A stretch of 38,795 nucleotides of DNA from a virus. The notes beneath the pieces are model-generated. The model did not search any database and was not told where the DNA came from. It saw only the letters and a list, made by a program, of their open reading frames with translations. The DNA lies in the UHGV virus genome UHGV-0423091. One strand, 5' to 3'. The stretch's first letter is position 1. The number at the start of each line of letters is the position of its first letter. The translations under genes and the position numbers were made by a program. Positions 12,215-33,306 of the stretch are shown one piece after another.

Positions 12215-12229
12215 TTACCTTTCAGGTAA
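12215..12229. promoter_or_regulatory. operator-like palindrome TTACC-tttca-GGTAA next to a TTGACA box (12193-12198)
   Basis: Perfect copy of the dispersed 15-bp palindrome, in the intergenic region between the 68-aa gene and the tRNA. Confidence 0.45.
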
Positions 12230-12551
12230 GCAAAGAGTTCATTCCGGTTATTAACCTGACTGGCTTGTCGTTAAATTGAACAGGTGGAGTGAGCTTTTAT
12301 TTTGAGCAGTACGGCGTATGGCACATGCGCCGATAGCGGTCTGGATACGTTTAAGGGGCACCCTCCCTTGCTCGGGCAAACGAACCAGGTAGCCGGAATG
12401 TGCAAGTCGAGCGGTTTTATTCCGCGCACGGGGATTCACCATCCCGGCGATTCGGTGTGACGCCTCGGAAGAGACGAGGGTACAACGATGAGAGCATTTA
12501 TGGAGCCGCGACAAAGTGTGGCGCCTTAACAGGCTAAGTGCTCTCAGCGTT

Positions 12552-12628
12552 GTGGCATTAGCTCAGTTGGACAGAGCAACCGCCTTCTAAGCGGTTGGTC
12601 GCAGGTTCGAATCCTGCATGCCACGCCA
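12552..12628 (+). tRNA. tRNA-Arg (anticodon TCT, reads AGA/AGG), argU-like
   Basis: Hand-folded cloverleaf: 7-bp acceptor GTGGCAT/ATGCCAC, D-arm GCTC...GAGC, anticodon stem ACCGC/GCGGT with loop CTTCTAA, T-arm GCAGG-TTCGAAT-CCTGC, discriminator G and encoded CCA. Confidence 0.85.
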
Positions 12629-12671
12629 GAATCACGCCTAAGGACCGTGATGCCAGAAGTTCCAGGTGCTT

Positions 12672-12715
12672 GGCGGTGATAGTTTCCCTTGAAGGACTAT
12701 CACCGCCCTTTTTAC
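12672..12715 (+). terminator. strong rho-independent terminator after the tRNA
   Basis: Perfect 12-bp stem GGCGGTGATAGT / ACTATCACCGCC with a 12-nt loop, followed by CTTTTT. Confidence 0.7.
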
Positions 12716-12791
12716 AGCAGGACGCCATTGCGATGACTTCATGCTGTAAACCCGTGCAGCCACGGAAGGCATAACTCATTGCTTCCAGTTC

Positions 12792-12815
12792 GCCCGGTTC
12801 GCCGGGCATTTTTTT
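12792..12815 (+). terminator. second intrinsic terminator (GCCCGG-UUCG-CCGGGC plus T7)
   Basis: 6-bp GC stem with UUCG tetraloop followed by seven T. Confidence 0.55.
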
Positions 12816-12831
12816 GCTTGATGACCGCAAA

Positions 12832-12849
12832 TTACCTTAAAGGTATAAT
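12832..12849. promoter_or_regulatory. operator-like site TTACC-ttaaa-GGTAt overlapping a perfect TATAAT (12844-12849) just upstream of the moron gene
   Basis: One-mismatch copy of the dispersed palindrome; consensus -10 hexamer. Confidence 0.4.
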
Positions 12850-12850
12850 C

Positions 12851-13669
12851 ATGAAAAACTTCAAGGTAATTAGCATGTTTGAATCGTTCAAAGAGCTGTT
12901 TTTATCTACTGCCAATACTGCCGTGAATCGAGCCAAAAACCCTGTGCTTGGTGCTTTTGTTATGTCCTGGTGCGCCTTCAACTGGAAATCAATTCTTTAT
13001 CTATTTTTTAGCAAATCAAACATAATAGATAAAATTTCATATATCTCAGATAACAGCACATGGAAAACTGTTATGTTTTATCCATGCTTATCTGTAATTG
13101 CTATCTGCTGCCTATTACCATGGGTAAACAATATCATTAACGTATGGCAAGCAAAGCCTCTTGATAATAATGACTCAATCGAAAATCACCTGAAGGCAAG
13201 AAAAATCCAGCGTGAAACAAGACTGCAGAGGTTATTGGCTAAAAAAGATGTTACATACGACAAAGTTAAGACTGGCGCGGAAAAAGACATCCAAGAGATG
13301 AAAGAAGAGATTATTCGATCAAAGAATAGTATGGGGGAATTGACTGCCGAGTTGAAAGCTAAAGATGACGAATTGAGATCCGCCAGTGCTCAGTTAGCAG
13401 CTCTAAATCATTCATTAAAAGAGATATCGGAAACTCTTGGAAGAATGAATGAGGCATATAAGACCCTCCAAAATGATTTCGACGAATACAAACTCAAATA
13501 CCCTGAAAAATCTCAAATAAAAAGCCTTGAACTTGGCAACGGCCAAACAATTAGCAACTTTTTGGAGCAACACAACTTATCCGGATTAAAATCTGGTAAG
13601 CCAAACGTTTTTAATAACTTTGGTGTTCTATCTGGATTATCAGGTTTCGAGGATAAAAATAAAGACTAA
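12851..13669 (+). CDS. moron: membrane plus coiled-coil protein, 272 aa; candidate superinfection-exclusion or abortive-infection factor
   Basis: Track ORF trimmed to ATG 12851; two predicted transmembrane segments then a long charged helical region; AT-rich; antisense to and converging on the terminase gene. Confidence 0.65.
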   Translation: MKNFKVISMFESFKELFLSTANTAVNRAKNPVLGAFVMSWCAFNWKSILYLFFSKSNIIDKISYISDNSTWKTVMFYPCLSVIAICCLLPWVNNIINVWQAKPLDNNDSIENHLKARKIQRETRLQRLLAKKDVTYDKVKTGAEKDIQEMKEEIIRSKNSMGELTAELKAKDDELRSASAQLAALNHSLKEISETLGRMNEAYKTLQNDFDEYKLKYPEKSQIKSLELGNGQTISNFLEQHNLSGLKSGKPNVFNNFGVLSGLSGFEDKNKD

Positions 13670-15141
13670 GCATATGGATCGTACTCGGTAAGCGCCTTGC
13701 CTTGCTGGTTCTGCTGCCCGGGAAGTCGCAGGCGCTTTGACACCGGGAAAGCAAACGTCAGCAGTAGCGCATCGCCTTTACCAGGCGAACGCCCAAGTCG
13801 TTCTTTGATATCTTCCTTCGGTTCGATAACGATTTTACCGTCCACGCGAACTTTGTACTCTGCCGCCGACAGATCGTCCGCTGTTTCCTGGTCATCCAGC
13901 ATCCCGCCCAACCTCAGCCATGTCTTGCATGAGTTGAACATCTCCCCGCGCTTGTTGAGCATCTGAGGGTCAGTTGACGCACCACCGAACGGAACAAGTT
14001 GCCATGTGCGCCCCCAGCCGTCACCGATTGACTTCAGACCGGTTCCGTAACCGAAGTCGATGAACACCGCGTCAGCCTGATACTGGTCTTCAAAGTCAGC
14101 GATACGCTTCGCCATAATCAGATCGTCAGTGGTCTTGTTGCCAGTCCATAGCACCTTACTATGCAACCCCTGCCGCAGGTATATCACCGCGTCATCAACG
14201 CCTGAATATGCCGGGTCAACACCGATTATCACCGGAGCATGTGCCACCTGCGCAGCGGTTACCACCCGTTTCATTGCCTCATCAGTAAGACCGGTAGGGA
14301 TAAACTGCAATTCAGATGCATCAGGGAATATGCCGCGCACACGGATTTTAACGAAGTCGCTGTCTTCCCCGTAGTCATCAACCCATTTCTGCAACTGCTG
14401 TTTGTTAGTACCTTCCACCGTCCGGCTGTCAATCTGCGCAGTTTTCCAGCGGTGTTTGTATTTGCGGAAACATTCGCGAAAACGCCCGGTATTACGTGTA
14501 GGGTTTCCGAACGCCACCCAGATAATCTCAGTGTCTTCGTCCGTAAGCGCACCCTCAGCAACTTCCCACACCAGATCCGCAATGTTCGACGCTTCATCGA
14601 ATACCACGATGATGCGTTTGCGCTCGTTGTGTAGTCCGGCGAATGCCTCAGTGTTGTGCTCAGACCAGGGGATTGCGTCAGCTCGCCACCGCTTGTCGTG
14701 CCCAGGATCATTGCTGTACATCGCGGTAGCGGTACAGGTAAACCAGTCTTTCGTGATAGCAAGGTTCGACCACTTGATAATTTCCGGCCAGGTCTTCGTT
14801 CGTAGCTGGTTGTCGGTGTTGGCGGTCACCACGACCTTACAATCCTCGCAAGTGGACATGCCCCAGTTGATCAGCATTGAGATGAATGCGGATTTACCAA
14901 TACCGTGACCAGAAGCACGTGCCAGCATAAGCGGCTGATAACGCGTCTCTGGATTCTGCAGGTGATCACGTATCTCTCGGAACGCATCGGCCTGCCACTG
15001 ACGTGGGCCGGTAGCATGTGCCAGTTCAGTCCCCTCTTCCCCCCACGGGAACGCATAGAGGGCATAGCCAAGCGGATCGTGAGTGAACCCTGCAATATCC
15101 TCGATTAACTGCTCTTCAGGAGATAACGCTGTATCTGTCAC
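13666..15141 (-). CDS. terminase large subunit, 491 aa
   Basis: Walker A-like ARASGHGIGKS near the N-terminus; size; directly downstream of the small subunit. Confidence 0.9.
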   Translation of the reverse strand: MTDTALSPEEQLIEDIAGFTHDPLGYALYAFPWGEEGTELAHATGPRQWQADAFREIRDHLQNPETRYQPLMLARASGHGIGKSAFISMLINWGMSTCEDCKVVVTANTDNQLRTKTWPEIIKWSNLAITKDWFTCTATAMYSNDPGHDKRWRADAIPWSEHNTEAFAGLHNERKRIIVVFDEASNIADLVWEVAEGALTDEDTEIIWVAFGNPTRNTGRFRECFRKYKHRWKTAQIDSRTVEGTNKQQLQKWVDDYGEDSDFVKIRVRGIFPDASELQFIPTGLTDEAMKRVVTAAQVAHAPVIIGVDPAYSGVDDAVIYLRQGLHSKVLWTGNKTTDDLIMAKRIADFEDQYQADAVFIDFGYGTGLKSIGDGWGRTWQLVPFGGASTDPQMLNKRGEMFNSCKTWLRLGGMLDDQETADDLSAAEYKVRVDGKIVIEPKEDIKERLGRSPGKGDALLLTFAFPVSKRLRLPGQQNQQGKALTEYDPYA

Positions 15142-15734
15142 TGATTACCATCCTGACGTTCTTTGAGTCGCTTCCTGGCTGCTGCTATGCGATCAGCAAT
15201 TGTCACATTCACATTAACATCCAGACGTTCTTTGAACGCGTTGACATCAACATGCTTACCAATCAGCTCAAGGTTCTTCACCTTGTCAGGCCATTTAATT
15301 TTTTTGAGGATTGTCTCTATCGAATCCTCGTTCATGTTCATGATGGTCGATGACAAATCAAAGCCACTAAGCGTAGTGCGCCAGATTTTCGGCCACTCAC
15401 GGATTGGTTTAAGGCTCCCATCGTCGTTGAGGATGTCGATCACGTCCATCTGGTCGATCTGCACCAGGCGCATGAGAACGTAATCAGCACTGACGCGCAT
15501 TCGTTTGTTGCGCTCCTCCATCAACTCGGCAATCCGTTTTTGAATGCGTTCATCGCGCATCATGACACTGGCTTTAACTGCCGCTGTATTTGGGGAGAAT
15601 CCTGCGTTAATCGCTGCCTGAGTCTGGTTTTCAGGCGTTTTGATGTATGACTGGCAATAAGCCTCCTGCATTGCTGTTAGTGGCTTAAATTGCGTTGATT
15701 TGCGTTTATAGGTTTTAGGTTCAGCAGGCATCAT
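15138..15734 (-). CDS. terminase small subunit, about 198 aa
   Basis: Track ORF 15138..15812 trimmed to tandem ATGs at 15734/15731, because a terminator hairpin lies inside the track's N-terminal extension. Confidence 0.65.
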   Translation of the reverse strand: MMPAEPKTYKRKSTQFKPLTAMQEAYCQSYIKTPENQTQAAINAGFSPNTAAVKASVMMRDERIQKRIAELMEERNKRMRVSADYVLMRLVQIDQMDVIDILNDDGSLKPIREWPKIWRTTLSGFDLSSTIMNMNEDSIETILKKIKWPDKVKNLELIGKHVDVNAFKERLDVNVNVTIADRIAAARKRLKERQDGNQ

Positions 15735-15766
15735 AACCACCGTGGTAATAGTTACCGTTATGGTAA
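15734..15766. promoter_or_regulatory. two tandem operator-like sites (TaACC-accgt-GGTAA and TTACC-gttat-GGTAA) overlapping the terminase small subunit start and SD
   Basis: Dispersed palindrome copies at 15734-15748 and 15752-15766. Confidence 0.45.
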
Positions 15767-15775
15767 TAGTACCAT

Positions 15776-15803
15776 GCAAAATAAAGCCGCCATAGTTGGC
15801 GGC
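15776..15803 (-). terminator. intrinsic terminator in the late-operon leader (GCCGCC-6 nt-GGCGGC then TTTATTTTG on the minus strand)
   Basis: 6-bp GC stem followed by a T-rich tract on the coding strand, about 45 nt upstream of the terminase start. Confidence 0.55.
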
Positions 15804-15852
15804 AGTATTCAAAACCCATCAAATTCATCATGCATAATCTACTCGTGACATG

Positions 15853-16191
15853 TCACACTATTAATTTCGTTTCATGCCAGCCTTTAGTCACCCAGCATTG
15901 CGAGTCACCATTACACGGGCATGAATTAACTGGAACTCTCTCGCCGCACTTACCGCAACATTTTCTGCTGATCGATTTTATACGCCCGCGCACGCGTGCA
16001 TCATCCTGGCGGATCAGTAACGCTATATACTCACCAAATTCGTAAGGCGCACGCCCGGGGCGACGCGTGGCACAGTTACGCTCCAGCATTTCAATTTCCT
16101 GAGCATCAAGCACAATTTCCAGCTTACGCACACCAGATGCAGCTTGTCTGGCTCTCTGAGCGGCTTTGCGCTCTGCTGCTGATTTAGCCAT
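15853..16191 (-). CDS. Cys-rich (zinc-ribbon-like) small protein, 112 aa; candidate late-gene regulator
   Basis: C-terminal CCGKCGERVPVNSCPCNGDSQCW cluster; last early-operon gene before the late leader. Confidence 0.5.
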   Translation of the reverse strand: MAKSAAERKAAQRARQAASGVRKLEIVLDAQEIEMLERNCATRRPGRAPYEFGEYIALLIRQDDARVRGRIKSISRKCCGKCGERVPVNSCPCNGDSQCWVTKGWHETKLIV

Positions 16192-16537
16192 TCTGATTTT
16201 CCTGCATCATGAGGAAGACAATCATGGCGGCGCGGAGAACATTTTCATGCTCATGCTCCCAAATATGGTTGGCAGAAGCACCGTGCAAACCGCTTTCGTT
16301 CCAGTCCCAGAGAATGTTAACTCCGTTATCAGCAATAATCGGCCATGAGGCGCTCGGATCATTGCAGTAGTCAGGTAAAGGGTTTAATGGCTCAAAAGTT
16401 GTATCAGCATTTCCGTAATACCATTTGTTGGTGTTATTCCCTGACGTTTCCGGTTTACATGCCCAAAGGCCTTTAAAAATTATGTCTCCTACCATTCTGT
16501 TAATTTCAAAATCACTTAACTGTGAATAGTCCATCAT
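16184..16537 (-). CDS. hypothetical nin-region protein, 117 aa (tentatively NinX/DUF2591-like)
   Basis: Track ORF; conserved-looking PDYCNDP...W segment; family assignment from memory only. Confidence 0.5.
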   Translation of the reverse strand: MMDYSQLSDFEINRMVGDIIFKGLWACKPETSGNNTNKWYYGNADTTFEPLNPLPDYCNDPSASWPIIADNGVNILWDWNESGLHGASANHIWEHEHENVLRAAMIVFLMMQENQNG

Positions 16538-17172
16538 TTCGCCACCTTCGGAGGCTCTGGTAGCGGCATCCAGTGAGTTACGTCATCCAAGATATTTCCT
16601 GATAAATGCGTGAAAGCTCTATATTTTTTGTAATTAATTGGATTTAAAACCCAGTTCCAATATGCGGCCACGATTTCACCTTGACTAAATGCCAGTAACA
16701 TTTTGGTGTCTTCCGGCATTCGATCACTACAGCTTATCCAACCATCCGGAATTACCGGAGAGTTGCCGGGTTCTTTAATGTGCAAGCGAGGCTCACCATC
16801 TTTTGGTTCAGGCCACTGGCGTTCCATGTTGATCTTCAATTTATTTTCCATAGCAGCGGTAATTTCAGCATCACTGATACCAGCACGGCGCTGTGCATCC
16901 CACAACAGGAACTGCATATCAGCCCACTCGCTGAGATCGTCAGGTTTGGCTGCGGCTTCCAGAGCCTCTTTTGAGAGGTGTTTCAGTGGACCAATGGGGC
17001 CAACGCAGCCAAATGTGGAGTCAGACCATTTGGCATGCTCGTGGCGAATCTGTTCGCGTTCCAGCGATGCCAGTGCAATCCGTGCCACTTCCATTTGTTC
17101 GCCACGAGTAAGTCCGTTATCAAGCGGATTTTTAATGAATAATTCGATACGCTCTTTGGTAATAGTGGTCAT
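16534..17172 (-). CDS. DUF550/DUF551-type two-domain protein, 212 aa (putative nucleotide pyrophosphohydrolase-like N-domain)
   Basis: Trimmed to ATG 17172 with AAGGAG SD; C-terminal W...MPE...THWMPLPEPP segment resembles DUF551. Confidence 0.55.
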   Translation of the reverse strand: MTTITKERIELFIKNPLDNGLTRGEQMEVARIALASLEREQIRHEHAKWSDSTFGCVGPIGPLKHLSKEALEAAAKPDDLSEWADMQFLLWDAQRRAGISDAEITAAMENKLKINMERQWPEPKDGEPRLHIKEPGNSPVIPDGWISCSDRMPEDTKMLLAFSQGEIVAAYWNWVLNPINYKKYRAFTHLSGNILDDVTHWMPLPEPPKVAK

Positions 17173-17173
17173 A

Positions 17174-17896
17174 TCACTCTCCTTTGATGCGAATGCCAGC
17201 GGCGCGGGAATCATTCCATCGCTTTACTTCTTCACGAATTACGTCAATGCATTCTTTCGAATCCATTAGGTAATCTTCATCAAAAAGCCTTTCCTGTTCG
17301 TTTTCTATCGCAACAATGATTGCTTCAACTAACTTTTGTGCCTGAGAACCACTTTCTAACTCTGCAATGCGCTTCTCTGCGGCTTCCAGCTTCTCGCGCA
17401 TATCGTCAACGTACTCGACCAGAGATCCGCCAGCAGGAATTTCGCACTCCTCGACCAGTTGGAAGTAGATATCAGCTGCGGCCCGTGTGTTGCTATGCCT
17501 AGCGTCGCCCATCTCACCTTCACGAAGAGCATCGCGTTCGGCGGTAAGATTGGCTATTTTGCTGTCTTTGCCTTCCAGCTCAACTCTCAGCTTCCCTACC
17601 GTTAGCGCAATTTCCTCGTTCTCCTGATCGCGGCGTTTTATGTATTGCTGGTTTCTTTCCCGTTCATCCAGCAGTGCCTGCACTACTTCAGGGTTGAAAG
17701 CTGCGATATAACGAGCATTAGCAGCAGCTTTTTTCTGTCCATCAAACCCAGGCCATTTGATAACATCTTCGCATCGTTTATCACCTGGCGTATGCACCGC
17801 ATACGTACCAGTACCCGGCGAAATAAATGCGACCCATTCGCCCTGTGTTGCCTGTTTTGCTAACTCACGCAGTGCCTGATAGTCAATCTTGCTCAC
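17174..17896 (-). CDS. coiled-coil protein, 240 aa (possibly Ead/Ea22-like)
   Basis: Track ORF; N-terminal MSKIDYQALRELA motif and long heptad-like central region. Confidence 0.5.
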   Translation of the reverse strand: MSKIDYQALRELAKQATQGEWVAFISPGTGTYAVHTPGDKRCEDVIKWPGFDGQKKAAANARYIAAFNPEVVQALLDERERNQQYIKRRDQENEEIALTVGKLRVELEGKDSKIANLTAERDALREGEMGDARHSNTRAAADIYFQLVEECEIPAGGSLVEYVDDMREKLEAAEKRIAELESGSQAQKLVEAIIVAIENEQERLFDEDYLMDSKECIDVIREEVKRWNDSRAAGIRIKGE

Positions 17897-18312: not shown

Positions 18313-18373
18313 CTTTACCCTCGCTTATCCACATAACTTATTGATTACATTGATAACTAAAAAGATCGTCGAT

Positions 18374-18718
18374 TCAGAACTCTTCGATGTTCCAGCCACC
18401 ACCTGCTTTCTTTGGTTTAACCGTTACCCCGATGATTCGGAACGGATACTGATCTGCGGCGACTTTGGTTTTCACCCTGGCGTCGTCGGTCCAGAAACCT
18501 TTCACTTCGTGCAGTTCCATCTCGCCGGTGGCGAGCATCACAGCAAAATCGGGCGTATAGAACGTGTTGTCAGCTAACCGCAGCTTGATACCCTCAAATC
18601 GATACCAGACGATTTCTCCTGCACGTTTACGCAGCTCAAGGTGCTGGCAATACGCAGATTCTGTTTTGTTCATCTGTCCTGTTTTGAGTCGACCAAGAGC
18701 CTGTATCTGTTTTCTCAT
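18374..18718 (-). CDS. DUF1064-like small nuclease-fold protein, 114 aa
   Basis: Track ORF; size and conserved E/D/K pattern reminiscent of DUF1064; operator-like site immediately upstream. Confidence 0.5.
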   Translation of the reverse strand: MRKQIQALGRLKTGQMNKTESAYCQHLELRKRAGEIVWYRFEGIKLRLADNTFYTPDFAVMLATGEMELHEVKGFWTDDARVKTKVAADQYPFRIIGVTVKPKKAGGGWNIEEF

Positions 18719-18721
18719 GAT

Positions 18722-18798
18722 TTACCCCTGAGGTAATTAAAAACCACATAAGACACGAAATCAATAGATTTTAGAATATTTTATTACCTAACAGGTAA
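18722..18798. promoter_or_regulatory. two perfect operator-like palindromes (18722-18736 TTACC-cctga-GGTAA; 18784-18798 TTACC-taaca-GGTAA)
   Basis: Both lie in the intergenic region upstream of the DUF1064-like gene. Confidence 0.45.
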
Positions 18799-19636: not shown

Positions 19637-20433
19637 GCTTCAGGGCTGTTCCAGTGCGGAACGTTGTTATCAGGTAATGTTGATTGCTTCTGTCTGCTAA
19701 TCTGCAGCCGCCTTGCCAGCTTCTGCTCCCACTGCGCCTGATGGTATGCCTTACCCTCAGCCATCCAGTAAATTCTGAACTCTGCAAGTTCCTGTGCCGT
19801 TGGCAGACTGTCCAGGTAGATCCCCTGCAATGAGCTTTTCCGAAGAAAGTCATCTGATGGTTGCCATTGTTCATGCATGACAAATTTGCCTAATTGCCCT
19901 GGCCCACCAGGAGGAACAAAGTTATTCATCACGGCGTTGTTTGCGCCGGGGTCATGAGGCACAGAATCCCCGCTTTTTGTCCTGCTCTCCCTCTCTTGGT
20001 TAAATGACTGGTTATATGACTGGTTCTGGATCCCGTTTTTGGGATCATTCAACATCCCGTTTTTGGGATCATTCAACATCCCGTTTTTGGGTATATTCCC
20101 GTTTTCGGTAACATTACCGTTTTCGGGTTCATTACCCCCTTCCCGGTTGCCTTTAATGTTCCCGTTTTTGGTTATATTAAGAGAGAAAACCCGCACTCTT
20201 TTCGTCGCTCCCTTTCTCTCTCCGGTATCTGAAATAAGCCCCATTTTCATGAGCGATATAAGCCCGGCCTGCACGGTTTTTTTATTCAGGCAAGTGTCTT
20301 TAACGAGGCGTTCTATGCTGGGGTAGCAGAGGTTATATTCATCGGCTCTGTCAGCCATCGAGAGCAGTATGAGCTTTAATGACGAGCTACCTGGATCTGT
20401 CTCCCAGGCCCAATCTGTTGCATGTCTGCTCAT
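19618..20433 (-). CDS. replication initiator, lambda O-like role, 271 aa
   Basis: Immediately upstream of the P-like gene; N-terminal HTH-like region; iteron array embedded in the coding sequence. Confidence 0.65.
   Translation of the reverse strand: MSRHATDWAWETDPGSSSLKLILLSMADRADEYNLCYPSIERLVKDTCLNKKTVQAGLISLMKMGLISDTGERKGATKRVRVFSLNITKNGNIKGNREGGNEPENGNVTENGNIPKNGMLNDPKNGMLNDPKNGIQNQSYNQSFNQERESRTKSGDSVPHDPGANNAVMNNFVPPGGPGQLGKFVMHEQWQPSDDFLRKSSLQGIYLDSLPTAQELAEFRIYWMAEGKAYHQAQWEQKLARRLQISRQKQSTLPDNNVPHWNSPEAWEDFL
20031..20177. repeat. iteron array (candidate origin of replication) inside the O-like gene
   Basis: Seven direct repeats with core TCCCGTTTT(T/C)GG: two identical 24-mers (20031-20054, 20055-20078), three 18-mers (20079-20132), a degenerate copy and a final copy at 20160-20177. 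Confidence 0.7.
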
Positions 20434-20729: not shown

Positions 20730-20744
20730 TTACCTTTGAGGTAC
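20730..20744. promoter_or_regulatory. operator-like site TTACC-tttga-GGTAc
   Basis: One-mismatch palindrome between the post-cro terminator and the 66-aa gene. Confidence 0.4.
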
Positions 20745-20799: not shown

Positions 20800-21030
20800 T
20801 CATGAGTAGAAGAAGTATGCCAGTTCTGCTTTTGAGCGCAGCCATTGTCTTGTTTTACAGGCTTTAAAAAGCCCATTCATCAATACTTTACCTGGCATTT
20901 TGCGCTTACCTGTTAAGTGAGTCTGGATATAGTGACTCGTCGTTCCGGCTTCCTGTGCGAAGGCTTCACGCTCATCCGGAGTAAGTGCAAGCCAGTGCTT
21001 TTTGAAATCGAAATGTCCGTTATCGCTCAT
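20800..21030 (-). CDS. Cro-like HTH regulator, 76 aa
   Basis: Divergent from the repressor gene across an operator-rich intergenic region; HTH-like segment FAQEAGTTSHYIQTHLTGKR. Confidence 0.5.
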   Translation of the reverse strand: MSDNGHFDFKKHWLALTPDEREAFAQEAGTTSHYIQTHLTGKRKMPGKVLMNGLFKACKTRQWLRSKAELAYFFYS

Positions 21031-21066: not shown

Positions 21067-21129
21067 TCACCCATAAGGTAACAAAAATCAAGGATAGTTA
21101 CCTATGAGGTGCATTTACCTGTTGGGTAA
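21067..21129. promoter_or_regulatory. tripartite operator cluster with divergent promoters between the Cro-like and repressor genes
   Basis: Three palindrome copies: 21067-21081 TcACC-cataa-GGTAA, 21098-21112 TTACC-tatga-GGTgc, 21115-21129 TTACC-tgttg-GGTAA. Confidence 0.6.
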
Positions 21130-21184: not shown

Positions 21185-21769
21185 ATGAAAAGTATCCAGG
21201 ACGTCCGCAGGCAAAATCTCAACGACTTGATCGACCGTGAATTCAATGGTGTTCAGACGCGGATGGCAGAAAAACTTGGAACTCAGGCAAATCTGGTAAA
21301 CCGCTGGGCTCTTGGCAAGAAGGTTATCGGCGACCAGGTTGCACGAAAAATTGAAGCTGCCGCCAATAAACCCCGTAACTGGCTTGATATTGATCGCTCG
21401 CTTTCTCAGGAGGGTTTTCAGCCTGTCGGCCCGAGCGATATAGGTCAGCTGGCGGCTCACAACCTGGAACGCTGGATGAGCGAAAGCCGCGACCTTTCAA
21501 CGCAGGGAAAACTACACCGCGCATCCGGCGTCGCCCAGGTGACAATCAGCCGCCTGTTAAACAATGAGGTCAGCGTTTCCATTTCCACCCTGGAGAATGT
21601 TGCATCCGCATTCGGGCGTCACGGCTATGAATTACTGATTCACCCGCACGACCCTGCGACCATCAACTATGATCGCTCGCGCTACGCATTGTTACCCGAA
21701 ACCGAGAAAGCAAAGATCGAAAGTTACATTGAATTTGTCATCAACCAGAACGAAAAAAACAAACAATAA
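21185..21769 (+). CDS. phage repressor (CI role), 194 aa, two HTH-like segments, no S24 peptidase domain
   Basis: Divergent from the Cro-like gene; HTH-like segments near residues 25-45 and 110-135; no Ala-Gly/Ser-Lys autocleavage module; no SD (leaderless-like start). Confidence 0.65.
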   Translation: MKSIQDVRRQNLNDLIDREFNGVQTRMAEKLGTQANLVNRWALGKKVIGDQVARKIEAAANKPRNWLDIDRSLSQEGFQPVGPSDIGQLAAHNLERWMSESRDLSTQGKLHRASGVAQVTISRLLNNEVSVSISTLENVASAFGRHGYELLIHPHDPATINYDRSRYALLPETEKAKIESYIEFVINQNEKNKQ

Positions 21770-21826: not shown

Positions 21827-21903
21827 TTACCTAATGGGTAATTTTTTTAACTCATATCTATTGACATCAAACCAGATACGCATAATTATTACCTCAACGG
21901 TAA
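21827..21903. promoter_or_regulatory. second operator pair with sigma70-like promoter (TTGACA at 21861-21866) for the plus-strand recombination operon
   Basis: Perfect palindromes at 21827-21841 (TTACC-taatg-GGTAA) and 21889-21903 (TTACC-tcaac-GGTAA), the latter over the -10/start region. Confidence 0.55.
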
Positions 21904-22075: not shown

Positions 22076-22077
22076 TA

Positions 22078-24480: not shown

Positions 24481-24780
24481 GTGAGAAAGTTAAGCCGACT
24501 TGAAAAATATCACATGAACAAGGTTTCAATGCGCAGCCCTTCAAAGGTTGTTGCCGTTACTCCTGCGGCGATAGAGATCGAAAAACGCGCGATTGAAAGA
24601 GAGAAAAAAGGGCAGTTCCGCATTGCCGCCCACCTTTGGCTTCAGTGTATGGATGTTGCTTCTGGTGATGTTGAGCGTGCAAGGATCGCGGTTCGCAGGG
24701 ACCAATGTATCACAAAAGGTAACGGCCTTCGCCGTGGCGACTATAGCGGCATAGGATGTTGCGGGGTGGTTTATGACTAA
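24481..24780 (+). CDS. small putative regulatory protein, 99 aa
   Basis: Track ORF (GTG start) immediately upstream of and overlapping the methyltransferase start. Confidence 0.45.
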   Translation: MRKLSRLEKYHMNKVSMRSPSKVVAVTPAAIEIEKRAIEREKKGQFRIAAHLWLQCMDVASGDVERARIAVRRDQCITKGNGLRRGDYSGIGCCGVVYD

Positions 24781-25614: not shown

Positions 25615-25617
25615 ACG

Positions 25618-26868: not shown

Positions 26869-27186
26869 AATTCACCCGTATAGAAACCATTTTCATGACG
26901 GTATGAGAGTATACCTTTAAGGTAATACCGTCACCTGTACCGCCGAAAAATATGGTGTAGAGTGAATAGAAATGAATACATAAAAACAAAAAACCCTCTG
27001 TAAAAACAGAGGGTTAAATTAGTATCTGAATAGGAATGAGTTGCTATGAGTTAGCTGTTAATCATTCCCACTCAATTATTTACGGATACAATAACCAATT
27101 GAGTGATAACATTTTTCCAAATCTCAATTTTTACCGTACCGTTTTATATACCGTCACCGGAAATCAGTACCATGAAAAATGCCATG
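26869..27186. other. candidate attP / integrase control region
   Basis: Non-coding 318 bp immediately upstream of the integrase; 11-bp direct repeat ATACCGTCACC at 26925-26935 and 27148-27158; nested palindrome GACGGTAT...ATACC-tttaa-GGTAA-TACCGTC; TACCG repeats at 27132-27141. Confidence 0.3.
26981..27013 (-). terminator. rho-independent terminator ending the tailspike-lysis operon
   Basis: CCCTCTG-6 nt-CAGAGGG followed on the minus strand by TTTTTTGTTTTT. Confidence 0.7.
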
Positions 27187-27669
27187 CTATCTGGTCAGGG
27201 TGTCGTACTGTTTTTCACAGACTCTTCCGGCTTCGGCTGCCCGGTCAGCATACTCTGCCAGTTGTCTGTTTCTCTCGAGAGATTTACTGAGCACGTCGGC
27301 AAGCAAAACTCCGGTGTCTGCGGCTGACGTCCCAGCGCCGACAATGGCGTTATACTGCCTGAGCTGCTCACGGATGGCAACGAGCTGTTGCTGCAACCGG
27401 CCAGCGCGAGCGGCAGCATCAAGAGCATCATTGCGCGCCTGGTCGATCCTCTGCTGCGCTTCACGTTCATTGATCGATTTCTCCTGTTCGTAGTGCTGAC
27501 GAACTCTCTCATCTTCGGTTTTGCGGTCTTCTTTCGCCTGTGCATACCCGGCGTCGTACTGACGACTACCGTGTACATTCCAGGCAACAACCCCTGATAT
27601 GACCAGAACAGCAAGCACCGCCACGATAAGCAACTGTTTCCAGTATGCTTTTACGAATGCCCAGATCAT
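27187..27669 (-). CDS. i-spanin (Rz-like), 160 aa
   Basis: N-terminal transmembrane helix then charged coiled-coil; directly after the endolysin (start overlaps its stop). Confidence 0.65.
27195..27470 (-). CDS. o-spanin (Rz1-like) lipoprotein, embedded in the +1 frame of Rz
   Basis: Signal peptide ending in lipobox LAGC ([26 protein letters not shown]); AGGAG upstream of ATG 27470 (alternative start 27431); entirely inside the Rz ORF. Confidence 0.55.
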   Translation of the reverse strand: MNVKRSRGSTRRAMMLLMLPLALAGCSNSSLPSVSSSGSITPLSALGRQPQTPEFCLPTCSVNLSRETDNWQSMLTGQPKPEESVKNSTTP

Positions 27670-28295
27670 ACCGCCAGCACCTTACTGGCAGTGATGTACC
27701 GCGCTCTCCGGTCGTCGATGCCGTTCCTGCCACCATTGATAATCAAAGTTACACGTGCAATATCGCCGGTATACTTCATGCAACCTTTGCTGGAGAAGAA
27801 CCACGCCGCGCTACGAGCCGCATATTCGTCCTGCGCTAACAGTTCAGGATTCTCCAGCAGGTCCACTTTCAGGCCGTTTCCGCAGTCACGATAGTTATTC
27901 AAACCGGTAATCTGGATAAGTCCACGGCCTCGGTAATTCCAGCCGTCACCAGGGGAATTGTTCCCCATGCGTTTGCTGTACACCAGATTGGCGATCGCTC
28001 GCTGGCGCTCGAGTGGCAATGGTGGTTCACCAGCACGGCGACCCAGTGCATTAGCCTGCCCCTGAGTGAGACGCCCAGCCCGAACGAAGTTAGCCAGACC
28101 GCTGACACTGTAGTTGAAATTCTCCTGCAATCTGGTGAAGCCCACAGATTCATGCCCGACCTGAGCAATAAACATTGCCAGATCTTCTGGTTTGCTGATA
28201 CCAAACTCTTTCATCGCAGAAGTTATATGCGAGAACCAGCGTGCGGCCAGCGCCTCGCTAATACCAGCAGCTCGCTGGAATTGTTTAATCTCCAT
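27666..28295 (-). CDS. endolysin, glycoside hydrolase family 19-like (chitinase-like lysozyme), 209 aa
   Basis: Track ORF 27666..28526 trimmed to ATG 28295 (GAGG SD); GH19-like segments [12 protein letters not shown] and [13 protein letters not shown]. Confidence 0.8.
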
Positions 28296-28593
28296 GTTTA
28301 GACCTCGATATTTTGAAAATCTGAACAACGTTACCGCGTGTTTTAATAACCGCGGCAAGCATGACAGCGTTGATAATGACCTCAGATAAATCCACAGCCA
28401 TTGGCGTGCGTAACCAGATTGCATAGACGACACGAACAGGAATACTGGCCGCAGCAACAATAAGGAAATAAGCAAGCCACCCTCCCCATCTTCGATGTTG
28501 AGAGCCGTTACGCCGGAATGTGACAACGCGAATTGCTATGCCAGTACAAATAACTGCATTGGTGATAAGCAAAAAAAACTCATGCGTTACCAT
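28285..28593 (-). CDS. holin or antiholin, 102 aa, about three transmembrane segments
   Basis: Hydrophobic small protein immediately upstream of, and overlapping, the endolysin start. Confidence 0.5.
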
Positions 28594-28996
28594 CGTCTTT
28601 TCTCCCCGGAATTAAATCGCGTGGATTGTCTGAACGGTGGTAGAGCCATATACCAATACGCACAGCGACAATTGCTGACACGAATGCGCCAGCAGAGAAA
28701 ACAATACCTTTTTCAAAAGAGTCCTGCGTGATGGTAGGGATCAGGCTGGCTATGCCGATAAGAATTGATGCTGCTGGTTTGTAGAAAAGAAGTCCGCAGA
28801 GAAAGCTGAGCATCGACAAGAGTACGCGACGACGAATTGGATACTCTACCGCAGAGGTAACAAAAATTACCGCACCAGCAAGAGCACCGAGCGCCACCTC
28901 TGGCGGAACACCTACGATAACCGCAGCAAGAGAGCTCACACTAAGCCATTGATTTAAAGACTCAGTTGTTATGTTAACCGACATAGCACACACCAT
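28580..28996 (-). CDS. holin-like membrane protein, 138 aa, about four transmembrane segments
   Basis: First gene of the lysis cassette; overlaps the next membrane-protein gene by 14 bp. Confidence 0.5.
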   Translation of the reverse strand: MVCAMSVNITTESLNQWLSVSSLAAVIVGVPPEVALGALAGAVIFVTSAVEYPIRRRVLLSMLSFLCGLLFYKPAASILIGIASLIPTITQDSFEKGIVFSAGAFVSAIVAVRIGIWLYHRSDNPRDLIPGRKDDGNA

Positions 28997-29159
28997 TTTT
29001 TTTGTACATATCGAACCTCTTCACTTACAGATCACCACACACAACAAACCATATATGTTTAACTATCAGATATTCTGAAATAACTATCAATTCATTGGTT
29101 TTTGATGACAATATTCATAAACAACCATAAATGTAAGGCGGTTTATTAGTTGCCAAAAT

Positions 29160-31766
29160 TTATTTCCTGCAAACTCCAGATGATGTTAATCCATCAAAAA
29201 TAACCTGCACTCTGGCAATAACAACATCAACTCCAGAAGTCGTTTCACTTGCATAACCAAGTTTTATTTTAGATACAATATCCTGAGTAAGTTCAGATAT
29301 TTCAGTTTCTGCAATGTTACCAGAGGCCATGTGATTATCGTATGCCATAGAATGAATTCCATTATTGACATCGATTGAACTAGTATGTTTGTGAAAAATA
29401 GATGGGTTTACCTGAAACGAATTTGAACCGATAAGATCAGAAGATACTCCATTCATCACTGCAGTACAGCGTGGAATATTATTATCGGTTATTGTCATAT
29501 GCAGACGGTTACCAGTTAACCCCTCACCAAGTGTGACATAATACGCCAATTCTCCACCTGCATATTGTTTCCCCTCAACAATAACAGTAATCCCTCTTAA
29601 TTTCTGATTAGCTAGCAAAAACTTATTACTGTCTATATAGCATTTATTTGCGGAACCAAAAACAGCCCCTTCTAAAATATCTGATGAATAGGAATAAATA
29701 AGGTCACCTGAAACAAAGGAAAGAATATCAGATACGTTTCCTTTTGTAGATAAGTTAGGAGAATAGCTATTAACTATTTCATATTGTCCTGTGATAAAAT
29801 CAAGGTAAACGCCATCAGTTTTCATCTCTTTAAAGAAAATGCTATTAAAGCATCCATCAAGAACCGGTGGATATATTCTAGAGCTTGCATAAGCTGTTGG
29901 GTGATTCTTATTATTACCACTACCAGGCGAATAAACATCTTCGTTAGTCATTGACTTTTTAAGCTTAACAGGAATCATCGGCTGCATATCAATTTTGCAG
30001 TTCCCTGAACCACCGATGCGAGGATAAAATAAACCACCAAACCTTACAATATTACTACTGAATAGTATTTCGTTATCGTTAAGTGTTATCTCAACGAAGT
30101 TTCCAATAAGTTTAAATTCAACTGAAAACAAACCAAGTGGAGCAGATAATTTAACAATATTGCGCATAAAAACACCTACAGTCCCTGTTGATGCAGTATA
30201 GTGTGTGGTTTCAAAGGCAGAGCCTGTATATTTCAAGTTAATGAAATTATTATGGTATGAAGACAATTGAAATTGAATCCCAGAACTAAGGATTTCAATA
30301 TCTACAAATTGAATCCTTACGGAGTAAGCATATGATAAATCTTCATATTCATAAGGCAATGTAACATCTTTTGAAATAGTTGCCCTCACATAATTACCAG
30401 AAACCACATCAATCCCATCACGTACAGCATTAAAGTAACGATTAAAATCAATAAGCCCAGCGCCAACATACTGCGCATATGACCGAGTCCATCCTGCCAT
30501 TGCGTTTCGTCCATTCTGAGCTTCTAAACTGCTAAATTCAGAGTCACTTGTGGTACTTGATGGGAGGATATTTGTACAAAAAACAATTTCAGGCATTGAA
30601 GTAATATCATTCAGTTCAGCCATCAATTTAAAAAAAGTTTTCTGCGGGAAGTTACCAACATCCCAACCATCTCCGTCATTCATGCCAAAAGCAATAATAA
30701 CAACATCAGGGTTAATATCACGAATGTAATCAATCCAGCGTCTGTTCGTGTCTGAATACCATGGGTACTGTGAGTTATAAGAAGTAATTGCTGGTGTATC
30801 TTTTCCAAGGTCATAGTACCTCATTCCACCAATTGCTCTGTTAAATAAAGTAGAACTTGGGAATTTCTCTTGCAAAACTCTCTTAAGATGAGCGGCAAAA
30901 ATGCTTGATCGATCCACTGTGCTTATATTATATGGGGCACTTAAGCTGTCACCAACTAACACTATTTTTGAGTTAGGCCTTGATAATCTCTCAAGTGTTT
31001 TAGATGTGACTAAACTGCATGAATTAATGAACTGAGCACTATTTAGTGTCTGTTCAAGTGTATCACCAAATCTGGTACCAACGTATGATGATCCGTTGAC
31101 ACTTGCTAGCTTAAGGCATAAATCAGCAGTATCTGTAATTGAAAAAATAGGAACAGGACGTCCTAAACTGTCATACCCCTGAATTGAGTTTGCCCTAGAA
31201 GATGCTGATGCCATTTCGCTTACTATCTCAGGGAAGCGGAGTGTTTTAGATATGTTGCTGTTAATAACTCCTTTGATAGATGAGTCTGTATATTTCTTCG
31301 TGGAAGCGTCCTGAGGAAATAATGGATCATCAAGGTTACGAATACGATTGCCTAGTGCATCGTAGTAAGTGGCACTAAATGATGGTTTACGAAGAGCCAG
31401 CCGAGCCATGCTTTTGACTAACTGGATCAGCATCGTTAGCTTATCAAAAGCATCCTCATGCACTTCCGCAAAGAACTTACCCTGATTGCGCAGATCAGTT
31501 TCCTGTGTAACCGGTAGCTCTCGTGATATAGAAATCTTATAGCCATTGGCCAACGCCTTCGACAATATTACATTTCCACCATTGTATCCTCCGGCCCCGG
31601 TAACTATATAATCAGTATCAAGAGTCAGTACGGTGATATTTTCATGAATATCAACAACCTGCACAATCAAATCAGATTTATTGAAAACCCTAAAGGCATA
31701 CGGAAACGATGTCGTAACGCCGTTACCGGTGTATTCGTTGTGGTCAACTTCGGTTGAGACCGTCAT
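29160..31766 (-). CDS. tailspike / tail fibre with T7 gp17-like N-terminal anchor and central SGNH (GDSL) esterase-like domain, 868 aa
   Basis: N-terminus YTGNGVTTSFPYAFRVF...LIVQVV resembles the T7 tail-fibre anchor; GDSL block (IVLVGDSLS, residues ~268-276, DNA ~30939-30965) and GxND block (AFGMNDG, ~358-364); AT-rich C-terminal half; GGAG SD. Confidence 0.8.
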   Translation of the reverse strand: MTVSTEVDHNEYTGNGVTTSFPYAFRVFNKSDLIVQVVDIHENITVLTLDTDYIVTGAGGYNGGNVILSKALANGYKISISRELPVTQETDLRNQGKFFAEVHEDAFDKLTMLIQLVKSMARLALRKPSFSATYYDALGNRIRNLDDPLFPQDASTKKYTDSSIKGVINSNISKTLRFPEIVSEMASASSRANSIQGYDSLGRPVPIFSITDTADLCLKLASVNGSSYVGTRFGDTLEQTLNSAQFINSCSLVTSKTLERLSRPNSKIVLVGDSLSAPYNISTVDRSSIFAAHLKRVLQEKFPSSTLFNRAIGGMRYYDLGKDTPAITSYNSQYPWYSDTNRRWIDYIRDINPDVVIIAFGMNDGDGWDVGNFPQKTFFKLMAELNDITSMPEIVFCTNILPSSTTSDSEFSSLEAQNGRNAMAGWTRSYAQYVGAGLIDFNRYFNAVRDGIDVVSGNYVRATISKDVTLPYEYEDLSYAYSVRIQFVDIEILSSGIQFQLSSYHNNFINLKYTGSAFETTHYTASTGTVGVFMRNIVKLSAPLGLFSVEFKLIGNFVEITLNDNEILFSSNIVRFGGLFYPRIGGSGNCKIDMQPMIPVKLKKSMTNEDVYSPGSGNNKNHPTAYASSRIYPPVLDGCFNSIFFKEMKTDGVYLDFITGQYEIVNSYSPNLSTKGNVSDILSFVSGDLIYSYSSDILEGAVFGSANKCYIDSNKFLLANQKLRGITVIVEGKQYAGGELAYYVTLGEGLTGNRLHMTITDNNIPRCTAVMNGVSSDLIGSNSFQVNPSIFHKHTSSIDVNNGIHSMAYDNHMASGNIAETEISELTQDIVSKIKLGYASETTSGVDVVIARVQVIFDGLTSSGVCRK

Positions 31767-31870
31767 GTTAAATCTCCAGATAGTCGCAGCACCCGTTGCG
31801 CCGCATATCTGGTTATTCTATTACCTGAAAAACCATATATGTATAGAAAGACTATAAATACCAATAGATA

Positions 31871-31885
31871 TTACCTTTATGGTAA
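31871..31885. promoter_or_regulatory. operator-like palindrome TTACC-tttat-GGTAA
   Basis: Perfect copy in the divergent control region between the tailspike and antirepressor operons. Confidence 0.45.
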
Positions 31886-31924
31886 TTTGCAAAACGTGCT
31901 GGATAGCAAACAAATTATTTGATA

Positions 31925-31940
31925 CTGTATAAATATACAG
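31925..31940. promoter_or_regulatory. LexA (SOS) box CTGTATAAATATACAG
   Basis: Perfect CTGT-N8-ACAG with AT-rich spacer, flanked TA...TT, 22 bp upstream of ATG 31962. Confidence 0.7.
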
Positions 31941-31961
31941 TTATTGCATGGAGAAGATAAG

Positions 31962-32219
31962 ATGCAGCGGTATCACTATCCACTGGAAGACGGATTTACC
32001 GAAAGGATTCACACGCCGGGAGGCGTCAGGTCACTGGTGGAGGGATCGCACTTGATGAAATTACTCCGGGATCTCGATAAGGATGGATTTAATGTCGATG
32101 GCCCACTTGCCGAACTGACTGCACTGATTAACTACGTCACCAGCTCACAGATGTCTATGCAGGATCTGCAAACACATCTCGACTATTGTGCCGAACAATT
32201 ACGAAAACAAACCAGATAA
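31962..32219 (+). CDS. small protein, 85 aa, paralogous to the C-terminal domain of the downstream antirepressor; candidate small antirepressor
   Basis: Track ORF trimmed to ATG 31962 (GGAGAAG SD); by-eye alignment to antirepressor residues ~150-225 (IHxPxGV...E.S.LM.LL..L..DG..V.G..AEL...DxQTH). Confidence 0.55.
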   Translation: MQRYHYPLEDGFTERIHTPGGVRSLVEGSHLMKLLRDLDKDGFNVDGPLAELTALINYVTSSQMSMQDLQTHLDYCAEQLRKQTR

Positions 32220-32222
32220 GGT

Positions 32223-32265
32223 TTGCAATTACCAAGTGGAGTGCTTATATTTACCATTGCGGTAA
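32223..32265 (+). promoter_or_regulatory. sigma70-like promoter (TTGCAA-N17-TATATT) with operator-like site TTACC-attgc-GGTAA (32251-32265) over the start region
   Basis: Near-consensus -35/-10 with 17-bp spacer; palindrome overlaps the -10 and predicted +1. Confidence 0.45.
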
Positions 32266-32532
32266 ATTTACATCGCACTCCTCTTGTGCCATAGTAATCG
32301 GGCACTGGCAAAATCCAGTGCCGGGATTGGCGTTCCGGATTACTACAGAGGCACATATGCCGCATAAGCGGTTTTTTTATGTGTAAAGCGCACCTATTCT
32401 ATGGTGGGCTGTGTGGGGGCACCGAAAGGTGCGCCGGGTTCCTTTGTAGCCGGTTACGCCAACCCTGCACAGTTCACCACCAACCGATTGGCGTCGGTAG
32501 TGGTGATTAACCTAACTACAAAGGTGATCACT

Positions 32533-33219
32533 ATGACTGCTAACGTAACCCCATCTGTTTTTCATTTTGAATCAGAAGCAACCATTCGAGCCATTGTTAT
32601 TGATGGAAATCCTTGGTTTGTTGCCAAAGACGTTATTAAAGCTCTTCAACTGACAAACCCCACTATGTCAATAAAATCTCTTGATGATGATGAAAGGGCT
32701 AAATTTAACTTAGGCCGTCAAGGCGAAACCAATATTATCAACGAGTCAGGCCTCTACACACTGATCCTCCGCTGCCGCGACGCAGTGACACCAGGCACTA
32801 TCCCCTACCGCTTTCGTAAATGGGTTACAGGTGAGGTTCTTCCTCAGATCCGCCGCACCGGAAGTTACATTAAAAACTCGCTCCCGCAGGAAGAACGCAT
32901 AAAGATGGTTGCCGACCAAGTAGCCAACGCCACGGCGTCAGCAGTGATGCAGGCAATGAAGATAGAGAACAAAACCTACAGTGCACCACTGAAGCCCGGC
33001 TACCGCAGCCTGATTCATTCGCCGTCTGGTGTTCTCGGCCTGACGGAGAACTCACTGCTGATGAATTTGCTGAACCAGTTACAGGAAGACGGGCATGACG
33101 TATCGGGCGCGGCGGCGGAGCTGACCACCATGTTCTGCTACATCGTCGGTGTGAGCAAATGCCTGCGTGATATCCAGACGCACGCGGAGTACATCAACGA
33201 CAAAGCAGGGTTCTTCTGA
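32533..33219 (+). CDS. antirepressor, Bro-N domain family, 228 aa
   Basis: Track ORF 32401..33219 trimmed to ATG 32533 (AAGGTG SD); N-terminal Bro-N-like segment IRAIVIDGNPWFVAKDV...LYTLILRC. Confidence 0.7.
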   Translation: MTANVTPSVFHFESEATIRAIVIDGNPWFVAKDVIKALQLTNPTMSIKSLDDDERAKFNLGRQGETNIINESGLYTLILRCRDAVTPGTIPYRFRKWVTGEVLPQIRRTGSYIKNSLPQEERIKMVADQVANATASAVMQAMKIENKTYSAPLKPGYRSLIHSPSGVLGLTENSLLMNLLNQLQEDGHDVSGAAAELTTMFCYIVGVSKCLRDIQTHAEYINDKAGFF

Positions 33220-33291
33220 CGGGCGGCGGCACAGGGATGTGCCTTTAAATAATTCTGTACAGATTGCAGACTGGGGGTGAATAGCGTACTA

Positions 33292-33306
33292 TTACCTTAA
33301 AGGTAA
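33292..33306. promoter_or_regulatory. operator-like palindrome TTACC-ttaaa-GGTAA upstream of the accessory module
   Basis: Perfect copy 43 bp upstream of ATG 33349. Confidence 0.45.

Follow-up and report, generated by a model that had tools for sequence, protein, structure and literature searches.

A dispersed palindrome as the very likely operator of the lysogeny repressor in a Uetakevirus genome

Genome organization and the cro-rep switch region

The virus genome UHGV-0423091 (38,795 nucleotides; this whole stretch is called the window below) carries numerous dispersed copies of the palindrome TTACC-N5-GGTAA, three of which, counting imperfect ones, are located between the divergent genes for a Cro-like protein and a prophage repressor, Rep. 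The gp16-like structural gene spans both ends of the window (1-428 and 37421-38795; the two parts of 428 and 1375 bp add up to 1803 bp, as long as Orf14 of phiv142-3), so that the window is a complete genome, either circular or circularly permuted. It belongs to the phiV10/ε15 group of the genus Uetakevirus, the type member of which is Salmonella phage ε15, and shows about 98% identity to Escherichia phages phiv142-3, PAS61 and ZX5, as well as to phiV10 over most of its length. The gene map was built by annotation transfer from these relatives. Promoters were sought with sigma-70 scans; their assignments lean on conservation in alignments and are putative throughout. The switch region contains the following features.

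20800..21030, minus strand: Cro-like gene, homologue of ε15 gp39, divergent from rep; the product matches phrog_35, 'transcriptional repressor' (E=5e-12)
21067..21081: predicted operator O3, one mismatch (TCACC), 31 bp from O2, between a conserved TTGATT -35 and the putative cro -10
21098..21112: predicted operator O2, two mismatches (TTACCTATGAGGTGC), 17 bp from O1
21115..21129: predicted operator O1, perfect, over the -35-like TTTACC of the putative rep promoter
21185..21769, plus strand: rep, encoding a 194-aa prophage repressor, identified by its match to PDB 5D50_A and its identity to the phiV10 and ZX5 repressors

The original prediction placed three copies of the palindrome between these divergent genes, and a tripartite arrangement (21067, 21098, 21115) is indeed present. 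The spacing of 31 + 17 bp between O3, O2 and O1 is conserved in five phages. The TCACC variant of O3 is kept in all relatives, and the orthologue of O2 is perfect in ε15, SPC32H and BUCT711. Searches of Pfam and PDB with the Cro-like protein returned no match.

Rep aligns over its full length with the Rep protein of phage SPC32H (PDB 5D50_A, E=4e-42; residues 1-190 against 2-197). The repressors of phiV10 and ZX5 have the same sequence (100% identity), those of ε15 and SPC32H are 42% identical to it, and its alignment with relatives contains 70 invariant columns. In the Pfam scan, Rep matched helix-turn-helix (HTH) families alone, with HTH_3 at residues 106-147, and no S24 peptidase domain, the domain of RecA-dependent autocleavage, was detected. 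According to PMC9986798, proteins of the Rep family consist of an N-terminal HTH domain that binds DNA, a middle HTH_3-like dimerization domain and a C-terminal domain involved in tetramerization and in binding of the antirepressor Ant. Secondary accounts (PMC9638917 and PMC9986798) describe SPC32H Rep as a tetramer on palindromic DNA sites that is taken apart by tetrameric Ant.

Number, location and consensus of the palindromes

An exact scan of the whole window yields 10 perfect copies of TTACC-N5-GGTAA, starting at 12215, 15752, 18722, 18784, 21115, 21827, 21889, 31871, 32251 and 33292, a list identical to the one originally predicted. The mean number expected from dinucleotide-preserving shuffles is 0.01, and none of 100 shuffles reached 10. 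When up to one mismatch is allowed, the window contains 16 matches against 0.80 expected, the additional ones being located at 12832, 15734, 20730, 21067, 26911 and 28846. Thus, the proposed comparison with shuffled genomes came out strongly in favor of a non-random motif, and all six imperfect copies previously listed are real, five with one mismatch and the sixth (21098) with two; the copy at 28846 had been overlooked.

On the transferred gene map, the non-coding share of the window amounts to 3227 bp (8.3%). All 10 perfect copies are intergenic (binomial P=1.6e-11), as are five of the six one-mismatch copies (P=2e-5), which is how the suggested split into coding and intergenic matches turned out. 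We accepted 16 sites, namely the 10 perfect copies, five with one mismatch and, as the only one with two mismatches, 21098. Every one of these falls within the non-coding 8.3%, so the claim that the copies are intergenic or located at gene starts holds for the complete set.

Two groups of matches were discarded. The one-mismatch copy at 28846 lies inside the coding sequence of a gp23-like membrane protein and fits the approximately 0.8 matches expected by chance. Two-mismatch matches occur at the chance rate, with 22 of the 23 in coding sequence; because 21098 is the only intergenic one among them, the coding matches can be attributed to chance.

The ACC/GGT core is unchanged in 16 of 16 sites, and mismatches are confined to the outer two positions. 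Eight genomes together provide 68 unique sites, which give aTTACC-wwWww-GGTAAt as the extended consensus; in 98% of them the central base is A or T. In addition, every 5+5 palindrome with a spacer of 0-12 bp was counted in an unbiased census, in which TTACC-N5 is the top-ranked palindrome in the window, ε15, SPC32H, Tyrion and BUCT711 (9-11 copies each). Unrelated palindromes reach 4 copies at most in the same census, and lambda contains no copy of TTACC-N5-GGTAA.

Evidence linking the palindrome to Rep

One link comes from the RefSeq record of ε15 (NC_004775), which contains seven protein_bind features labeled 'repressor / lysogeny', all with the sequence ATTACC-N5-GGTAAT. One lies upstream of terS, one upstream of gp3 and one in the gap that separates the tail fibre gene from gp19, the homologue of Ant; three fall in the recET promoter region, and the last is upstream of the block of genes located after the replication genes. 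Copies in the window occupy the same syntenic places as the sites annotated in ε15. In particular, the orthologues of the sites at 12215, 31871 and 21827 carry the 'repressor' annotation in ε15 (the first two at 2931-2947 and 19895-19911, respectively), and the 12215 site has a syntenic counterpart in all relatives. By contrast, none of these sites is annotated in the records of phiV10, phiv142-3 and ZX5.

The ε15 record labels 7 of its 11 perfect copies. Copies left without a label, at 24704, 33341, 33358, 33388 and 35969, comprise all three that separate rep from gp39, the one at the lysis cassette and, from the second 62-bp pair (see below), the proximal one.

Phylogenetic footprints of three control regions were compared in the window, Tyrion, BUCT711, ε15 and SPC32H, the Reps of which are 42-78% identical. 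Neither the half-sites nor the distances from one site to the next change, whereas the 5-bp spacers are free to differ. Half-sites and site positions are common to relatives from E. coli, Salmonella, Enterobacter, Klebsiella and Serratia. The predicted recognition helix of Rep (N36-L-V-N-R-W41) is invariant across the five aligned phages. In an alignment of full-length proteins drawn from 86 clusters of homologues, the only helix variants are NLVSRW, NLINRW, NLISRW and NVISRW, all of them conservative. Two prophages (from Serratia and E. coli) with variant helices, the most divergent ones, contain seven perfect TTACC-N5-GGTAA copies each per 20 kb.

A more distant comparison separates Rep from the Cro-like protein. 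The cI protein of Pseudomonas phage PseuP_224 has an N-terminal domain 39% identical to that of Rep (E=1e-15), followed by a different, lambda-cI-like C-terminal part. The gene is flanked on both sides by TTACC-N4-GGTAA sites (19922, 19961, 20797 and 20823; three perfect and one with one mismatch). We also observe an unannotated open reading frame for a 76-aa Cro-like protein in this phage (19661..19891). The PseuP_224 Cro shows no detectable similarity to the Cro-like protein of the window. Because PseuP_224 shares the N-terminal domain of Rep and has an unrelated Cro, the TTACC half-site goes with the Rep domain rather than with Cro. Degenerate sites of the TTACC-N5 type also occur in the switch region of Moraxella phage Mcat9, in which the domain is likewise found at a large evolutionary distance. 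In both distant carriers the sites are confined to the flanks of the repressor gene; their dispersal is a property of the Uetakevirus group.

Functional data are available for ZX5, in which overexpression of the repressor abolishes free phage and lowers endolysin and holin mRNA by 99.99% and 99.97%, respectively (PMC9782041). Taken with the ε15 annotation, the homology to SPC32H Rep, the conservation of the sites and the recurrence of the half-site in the Pseudomonas phage, this supports the proposal that the 194-aa repressor uses the motif as its operator. Judging from these lines of evidence, TTACC-N5-GGTAA is very likely the site that the lysogeny repressor of the phage itself, Rep (21185..21769), binds at nearly every promoter.

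Predicted operators outside the switch region

The remaining 13 predicted operators are located as follows.

12215..12229: perfect, upstream of the gp3-like/portal structural genes
12832..12846: one mismatch, over the TATAAT of ATGACC-17-TATAAT, just before an accessory gene (12851..13669, plus strand)
15734..15748: one mismatch, 18 bp from the 15752 site and 2 bp before the terS ATG at 15731
15752..15766: perfect, right after the terminator upstream of terS, at the start of the late operon
18722..18736: perfect, proximal site of the DUF1064-block promoter, over -10/+1, ending 3 bp before the ATG at 18718
18784..18798: perfect, distal site of the same promoter pair, after the terminator of the replication P gene
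20730..20744: one mismatch (GTACC, minus strand), right after the cro terminator, with TTGATA-17-CAAAAT 17 bp downstream
21827..21841: perfect, distal site, after the rep terminator; the recET-operon promoter has its TTGACA -35 19 bp downstream
21889..21903: perfect, proximal site, over -10/+1 of the recET-operon promoter TTGACA-17-AATTAT
26911..26925: operator-like, one mismatch (GGTAT), in the attP region, with int 43 bp downstream; the least certain assignment
31871..31885: perfect, between the divergent tailspike and ant genes
32251..32265: perfect, next to the -10 TATATT of TTGCAA-17-TATATT, a promoter-like element ahead of the Bro-N antirepressor-like gene
33292..33306: perfect, upstream of an accessory module (33349..34417); also present in phiv142-3

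About half of the sites overlap recognizable promoter elements. The anticipated location over -10 elements, gene starts or Shine-Dalgarno regions is exemplified by the sites at 21889, 12832, 18722 and 15734. At four sites, the operator starts 14-20 bp past a terminator stem.

The recET-operon and DUF1064-block promoters share the same layout, that is, a terminator, an operator, about 19 bp, a -35, 17 bp, a -10, and a second operator over -10/+1; in the latter case the preceding terminator, after the replication P gene, is annotated in the phiV10 record. The two sites of each pair are 62 bp apart from center to center (21827/21889 and 18784/18722). This spacing is found at both promoters in five phages, with the exception of the recET promoter of BUCT711, where it is 63 bp. 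Because 62 bp corresponds to about six helical turns, both sites of a pair would lie on one face of the DNA, which suggests that a single Rep tetramer may hold both of them, either by cooperative clamping or in a tight loop. The 20730 site holds the distal position only, ahead of the TTGATA-17-CAAAAT promoter-like site that precedes the gp40-like, DnaT-like and P replication genes, and its mismatch is shared by phiV10, ZX5 and Tyrion. Likewise, the 31871 site is centered about 62 bp upstream of the estimated start of ant transcription, that is, in the distal-operator position, with a LexA box in the proximal one.

The terS pair is located downstream of a conserved promoter-like element and a terminator, and no promoter was found after it, the promoter calls being weak. 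If functional, these two sites would be limited to blocking elongation or to bridging with sites elsewhere. Looping, roadblock action and the pairing of individual sites with promoters are inferred.

The order of elements around the terS pair (15786-15860), namely a promoter-like element, a strong intrinsic terminator (15803-15786), the predicted Rep operators and terS, is kept genus-wide. This layout resembles PR'-tR' of lambda and suggests that the late genes depend on antitermination, for which the product of the neighboring gp49-like gene (phrog_536, 'transcriptional regulator') is a candidate.

The 12832 site belongs to an insert between gp3 and terL (12552-13669) that consists of a tRNA-Arg(TCT) gene (12552-12628), a strong terminator (12672-12707) and a gene for a 272-aa protein (12851..13669, plus strand), the -10 of which is covered by the predicted operator. 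The protein belongs to phrog_4780 and has no match in Pfam. Inspected by eye, its N-terminal part is hydrophobic and the remainder is charged and coiled-coil-like.

The site upstream of int is nested in an inverted repeat, GACGGTA...TACCGTC (26904-26939), and has the same mismatch in every relative. It may play a dual role in attP or in the regulation of int.

Antirepressors and LexA control

Two genes encode probable antirepressors, and a LexA box is associated with the first of them.

31925..31940: LexA box CTGTATAAATATACAG, which covers the -10 region of the promoter in front of ant, with the start codon (ATG) 22 bp downstream
31962..32219, plus strand: ant, encoding an 85-aa SPC32H-type antirepressor (PDB 5D50_E, 'Anti-repressor protein', E=1e-46; phrog_450)
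32401..33219, plus strand: second antirepressor-like gene of the Bro-N/Ash type (Pfam Bro-N, E=7e-20)

The ant gene is divergent from the tailspike gene, as is characteristic of the small Ant (about 86 aa) of this type of switch, and has the same position as SPC32H_020 and ε15 gp19. The LexA-box scan gave 2 matches in the window against 0.42 expected, and the box at the ant promoter is perfect. Work on SPC32H by Kim and Ryu in 2013 is said to have shown that LexA represses ant, so that the SOS response induces the prophage without repressor cleavage, and the LexA box is reportedly a defining feature of the family. With Rep, Ant and the LexA box all found, a complete switch of the SPC32H type appears to be present. 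Overexpression of the ZX5 counterpart of the Bro-N protein shifts the phage toward lysis (PMC9782041). Of the two proteins, small Ant (31962..32219), under the control of LexA, probably plays the central physiological part, and the Bro-N protein (32401..33219) would be a second antirepressor. The spread of the motif to a tailspike/antirepressor region, as originally predicted, is borne out by the copies at 31871 and 32251.

In the HMMER alignment, Ant is about 87% identical to SPC32H Ant, whereas Rep, including its Ant-binding C-terminal part, is about 42% identical to its SPC32H counterpart; the two partners have diverged at very different rates.

Conflicting observations and alternative explanations

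Several observations weigh against the assignment of the palindrome to Rep, or at least of individual sites to promoters. Promoter-like matches in the window are not in excess over shuffles, and the sites at 12215, 26911 and 33292 lack a convincing adjacent promoter. In ε15, the site upstream of int is annotated as an integrase-binding site and an RNase III site. At the switch, the best sites (O1, and in relatives also O2) cover the putative promoter of rep instead of that of cro; because this placement reverses the logic of lambda, the promoter assignments at the switch may be wrong. The lysis-cassette operator of the relatives (ε15, phiV10, SPC32H and Tyrion) is absent from the window, degenerate copies included. 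The stretch upstream of the lysis cassette (28985-29159) has been replaced, which accounts for the lack of this operator, and the O-antigen conversion gene of the relatives is missing. Finally, among the full-length proteins aligned we found no Rep homologue with altered specificity, the only helix changes being of the N39S and V38I type with unchanged operators. Because the variants are conservative and their prophages keep TTACC-N5-GGTAA, the Rep family offers no informative case of covariation between protein and operator. The N4 spacer of the Pseudomonas phage, as opposed to N5, is the sole operator difference seen and does not amount to true covariation.

The lysis genes of this phage may rely on read-through from the tailspike transcript.

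It appears very improbable that the Cro-like protein (20800..21030) reads the palindrome mainly or exclusively in place of Rep. The three sites between the divergent cro-like and rep genes and the placement of the protein in a 'transcriptional repressor' PHROG are compatible with such a role, and, given that Cro and CI share operators in lambdoid phages, binding of the Cro-like protein besides Rep is plausible. However, reading by Cro only would leave unexplained why the half-site recurs beside a Pseudomonas repressor that has a homologous N-terminal domain and an unrelated Cro. Nor does it agree with the 'repressor' label of the ε15 sites, with the silencing of lytic transcripts by overexpression of Rep alone, or with PMC9638917, where Rep of SPC32H is reported on palindromic sites.

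We give even less credit to recognition by a host factor or nucleoid protein conserved in Enterobacterales, or by another phage regulator (AlpA, PerC or a gp49-like protein). The motif is kept in phages of five host genera, and ε15 annotates IHF sites beside several copies, as might be expected for a host factor. Against this, the motif co-occurs with Rep in every phage or prophage genome examined, is absent from lambda and clusters at rep. We know of no enterobacterial factor with a TTACC-N5-GGTAA consensus.

The idea that the palindromes function as RNA or DNA hairpins, for example as processing sites or attenuators, has almost nothing to recommend it. Each copy could form a stem of about 5 bp, and the RNase III site of ε15 overlaps the copy upstream of int. 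Yet prediction gives stems of low stability (-1.1 to -6.4 kcal/mol), no mismatch in one arm is matched by a compensating change in its partner, and the arm bases are invariant over the 68 unique sites; a hairpin role is rejected because weak stems, uncompensated mismatches and arms conserved without covariation do not fit it. Furthermore, the sites occur regardless of the direction of transcription and are also found upstream of promoters. We assign no probability at all to a chance or compositional artefact, given 10 copies where 0.01 are expected, their confinement to 8.3% of the genome and the conservation of their positions across the genus.

Comparison with known repressor systems

Judged by its sequence, the phage is a member of the Rep-Ant system known from ε15 and SPC32H (PDB 5D50 and 5D4Z), and each defining sequence feature that was examined was found, including the ATTACC-N5-GGTAAT operator, syntenic site positions, homologous Rep and Ant, and a LexA box at ant. 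It differs from these phages in the extra sites at 12832, 33292, 32251 and 20730, in the missing lysis-cassette site and in a Rep that is 42% identical. Because the ε15 record already annotates these sites, the network itself is no novelty; ε15 and SPC32H are known examples of such a system, and our result is a confirmation and a transfer of annotation.

The original prediction likened the sites to the operators of P1 C1 and to mycobacteriophage stoperators. The operators of P1 C1 are asymmetric 17-bp sites through which one repressor acts on many scattered units, beyond two early promoters. The phage studied here resembles P1 in that one repressor would directly control many scattered transcription units, but its site is a 15-bp perfect palindrome, and its Rep belongs to the SPC32H Rep family, unrelated to C1. 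Stoperators act in an orientation-dependent manner. In Cluster A mycobacteriophages, they are numerous, genome-wide and often located in short intergenic gaps; PMC9283540 describes them as asymmetric and bound by a monomeric repressor. The sites in the window resemble those of the L5 gp71 type in being numerous and spread over the genome. Several of them are located just after terminators or in the terS leader, where a roadblock would be the only obvious role. The sites in the window differ from stoperators in that they are two-fold symmetric and number 16, about half of them lie over promoter elements, and the Rep family is dimeric or tetrameric. Accordingly, the likeness holds for the many scattered sites and is otherwise an analogy: the phage is in neither class, because the sites of both are asymmetric, stoperators are bound by a monomer and the repressors come from other families.

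The contrast with the two-operator design of lambda that was proposed is well supported, with 16 sites in about 11 control regions here compared with 2 regions in lambda. Similarities to lambda include three sites between divergent repressor and cro-like genes, neighboring sites 17 bp apart, and higher oligomerization that allows cooperativity or looping. Conversely, no S24 autocleavage domain is present here, and induction would proceed via an antirepressor. The loop of lambda spans 2.3 kb, whereas the paired sites of the present phage are 62 bp apart around single promoters.

Proposed mechanism and implications

In the model that we favor, each N-terminal HTH domain of Rep would read one TTACC half-site, so that two domains bind one palindrome and, the Rep homologues being dimers or tetramers, one tetramer could probably hold two palindromes. 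In a lysogen, Rep would occupy the 16 sites in about 11 control regions. The regions predicted to be silenced are the cro/rep switch (with three sites), the promoters of the replication genes and of the DUF1064 block, the starts of the terS late operon and of gp3/portal, the promoter of the recET/xis/dam operon, int/attP, tailspike/ant, the promoter of the Bro antirepressor and the two accessory modules. Direct silencing would in this manner extend to almost the whole genome. Two of the promoters would be bracketed by the 62-bp operator pairs, with one operator about 19 bp upstream of the -35 and the other over -10/+1. Induction would not involve cleavage of the repressor: upon an SOS signal, LexA would leave its box at the ant promoter, Ant would be made, and Rep would be stripped from the DNA.

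A more speculative extension, which we put forward as a tentative and rather doubtful proposal, combines one unchanged operator specificity across the family, 62-bp pairs that act as tight tetramer loops, and the terS pair as a palindromic roadblock to elongation. The Rep family is found in phages and prophages of Escherichia, Salmonella, Enterobacter, Klebsiella, Citrobacter and Serratia, with Reps down to 42% identical, and its specificity would be fixed because more than 10 dispersed sites would need to co-evolve with the recognition helix. If so, all such phages would potentially be cross-immune at the level of DNA binding. Possible new elements are the 62-bp pairs around promoters, the operators right after terminators and the lack of operator-specificity variants in the family.

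The present analysis provides a regulatory map for phages of the phiV10 type, the records of which carry no operator annotation; these phages are used in the detection and typing of E. coli O157 and are common gut prophages. The predicted presence of Rep sites at nearly all transcription units, including the two accessory modules and both antirepressor genes, indicates which cargo genes should be silent in lysogens.

Other signals in the window

A second, 12-bp perfect palindrome, GTGACATGTCAC, is found at 15845-15856 and 34441-34452 (0.11 copies expected at up to one mismatch). The first copy is located between the gene of the gp49-like regulator and the terminator that precedes terS, over a promoter-like GTGACA-18-CATGAT, and the second abuts the bidirectional terminator that closes the structural operon. 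Syntenic copies are present in ε15, SPC32H, phiV10, Tyrion, BUCT711 and one E. coli prophage. This palindrome could be a late-control or antitermination site, or else a module boundary.

The sequence CATATATGGTTT occurs exactly twice, both times on the minus strand, upstream of the lysis cassette (29046-29057) and of the tailspike gene (31830-31841), against 0.26 occurrences expected. phiV10 likewise has the copy at the lysis cassette, and the sequence may be a shared late-gene signal. Finally, the terminator scan revealed a 20-bp unit, TGGGATCATTCAACATCCCG, with two copies 24 bp apart (20040-20083) within the DnaT-like gene, which could be an origin-type repeat.

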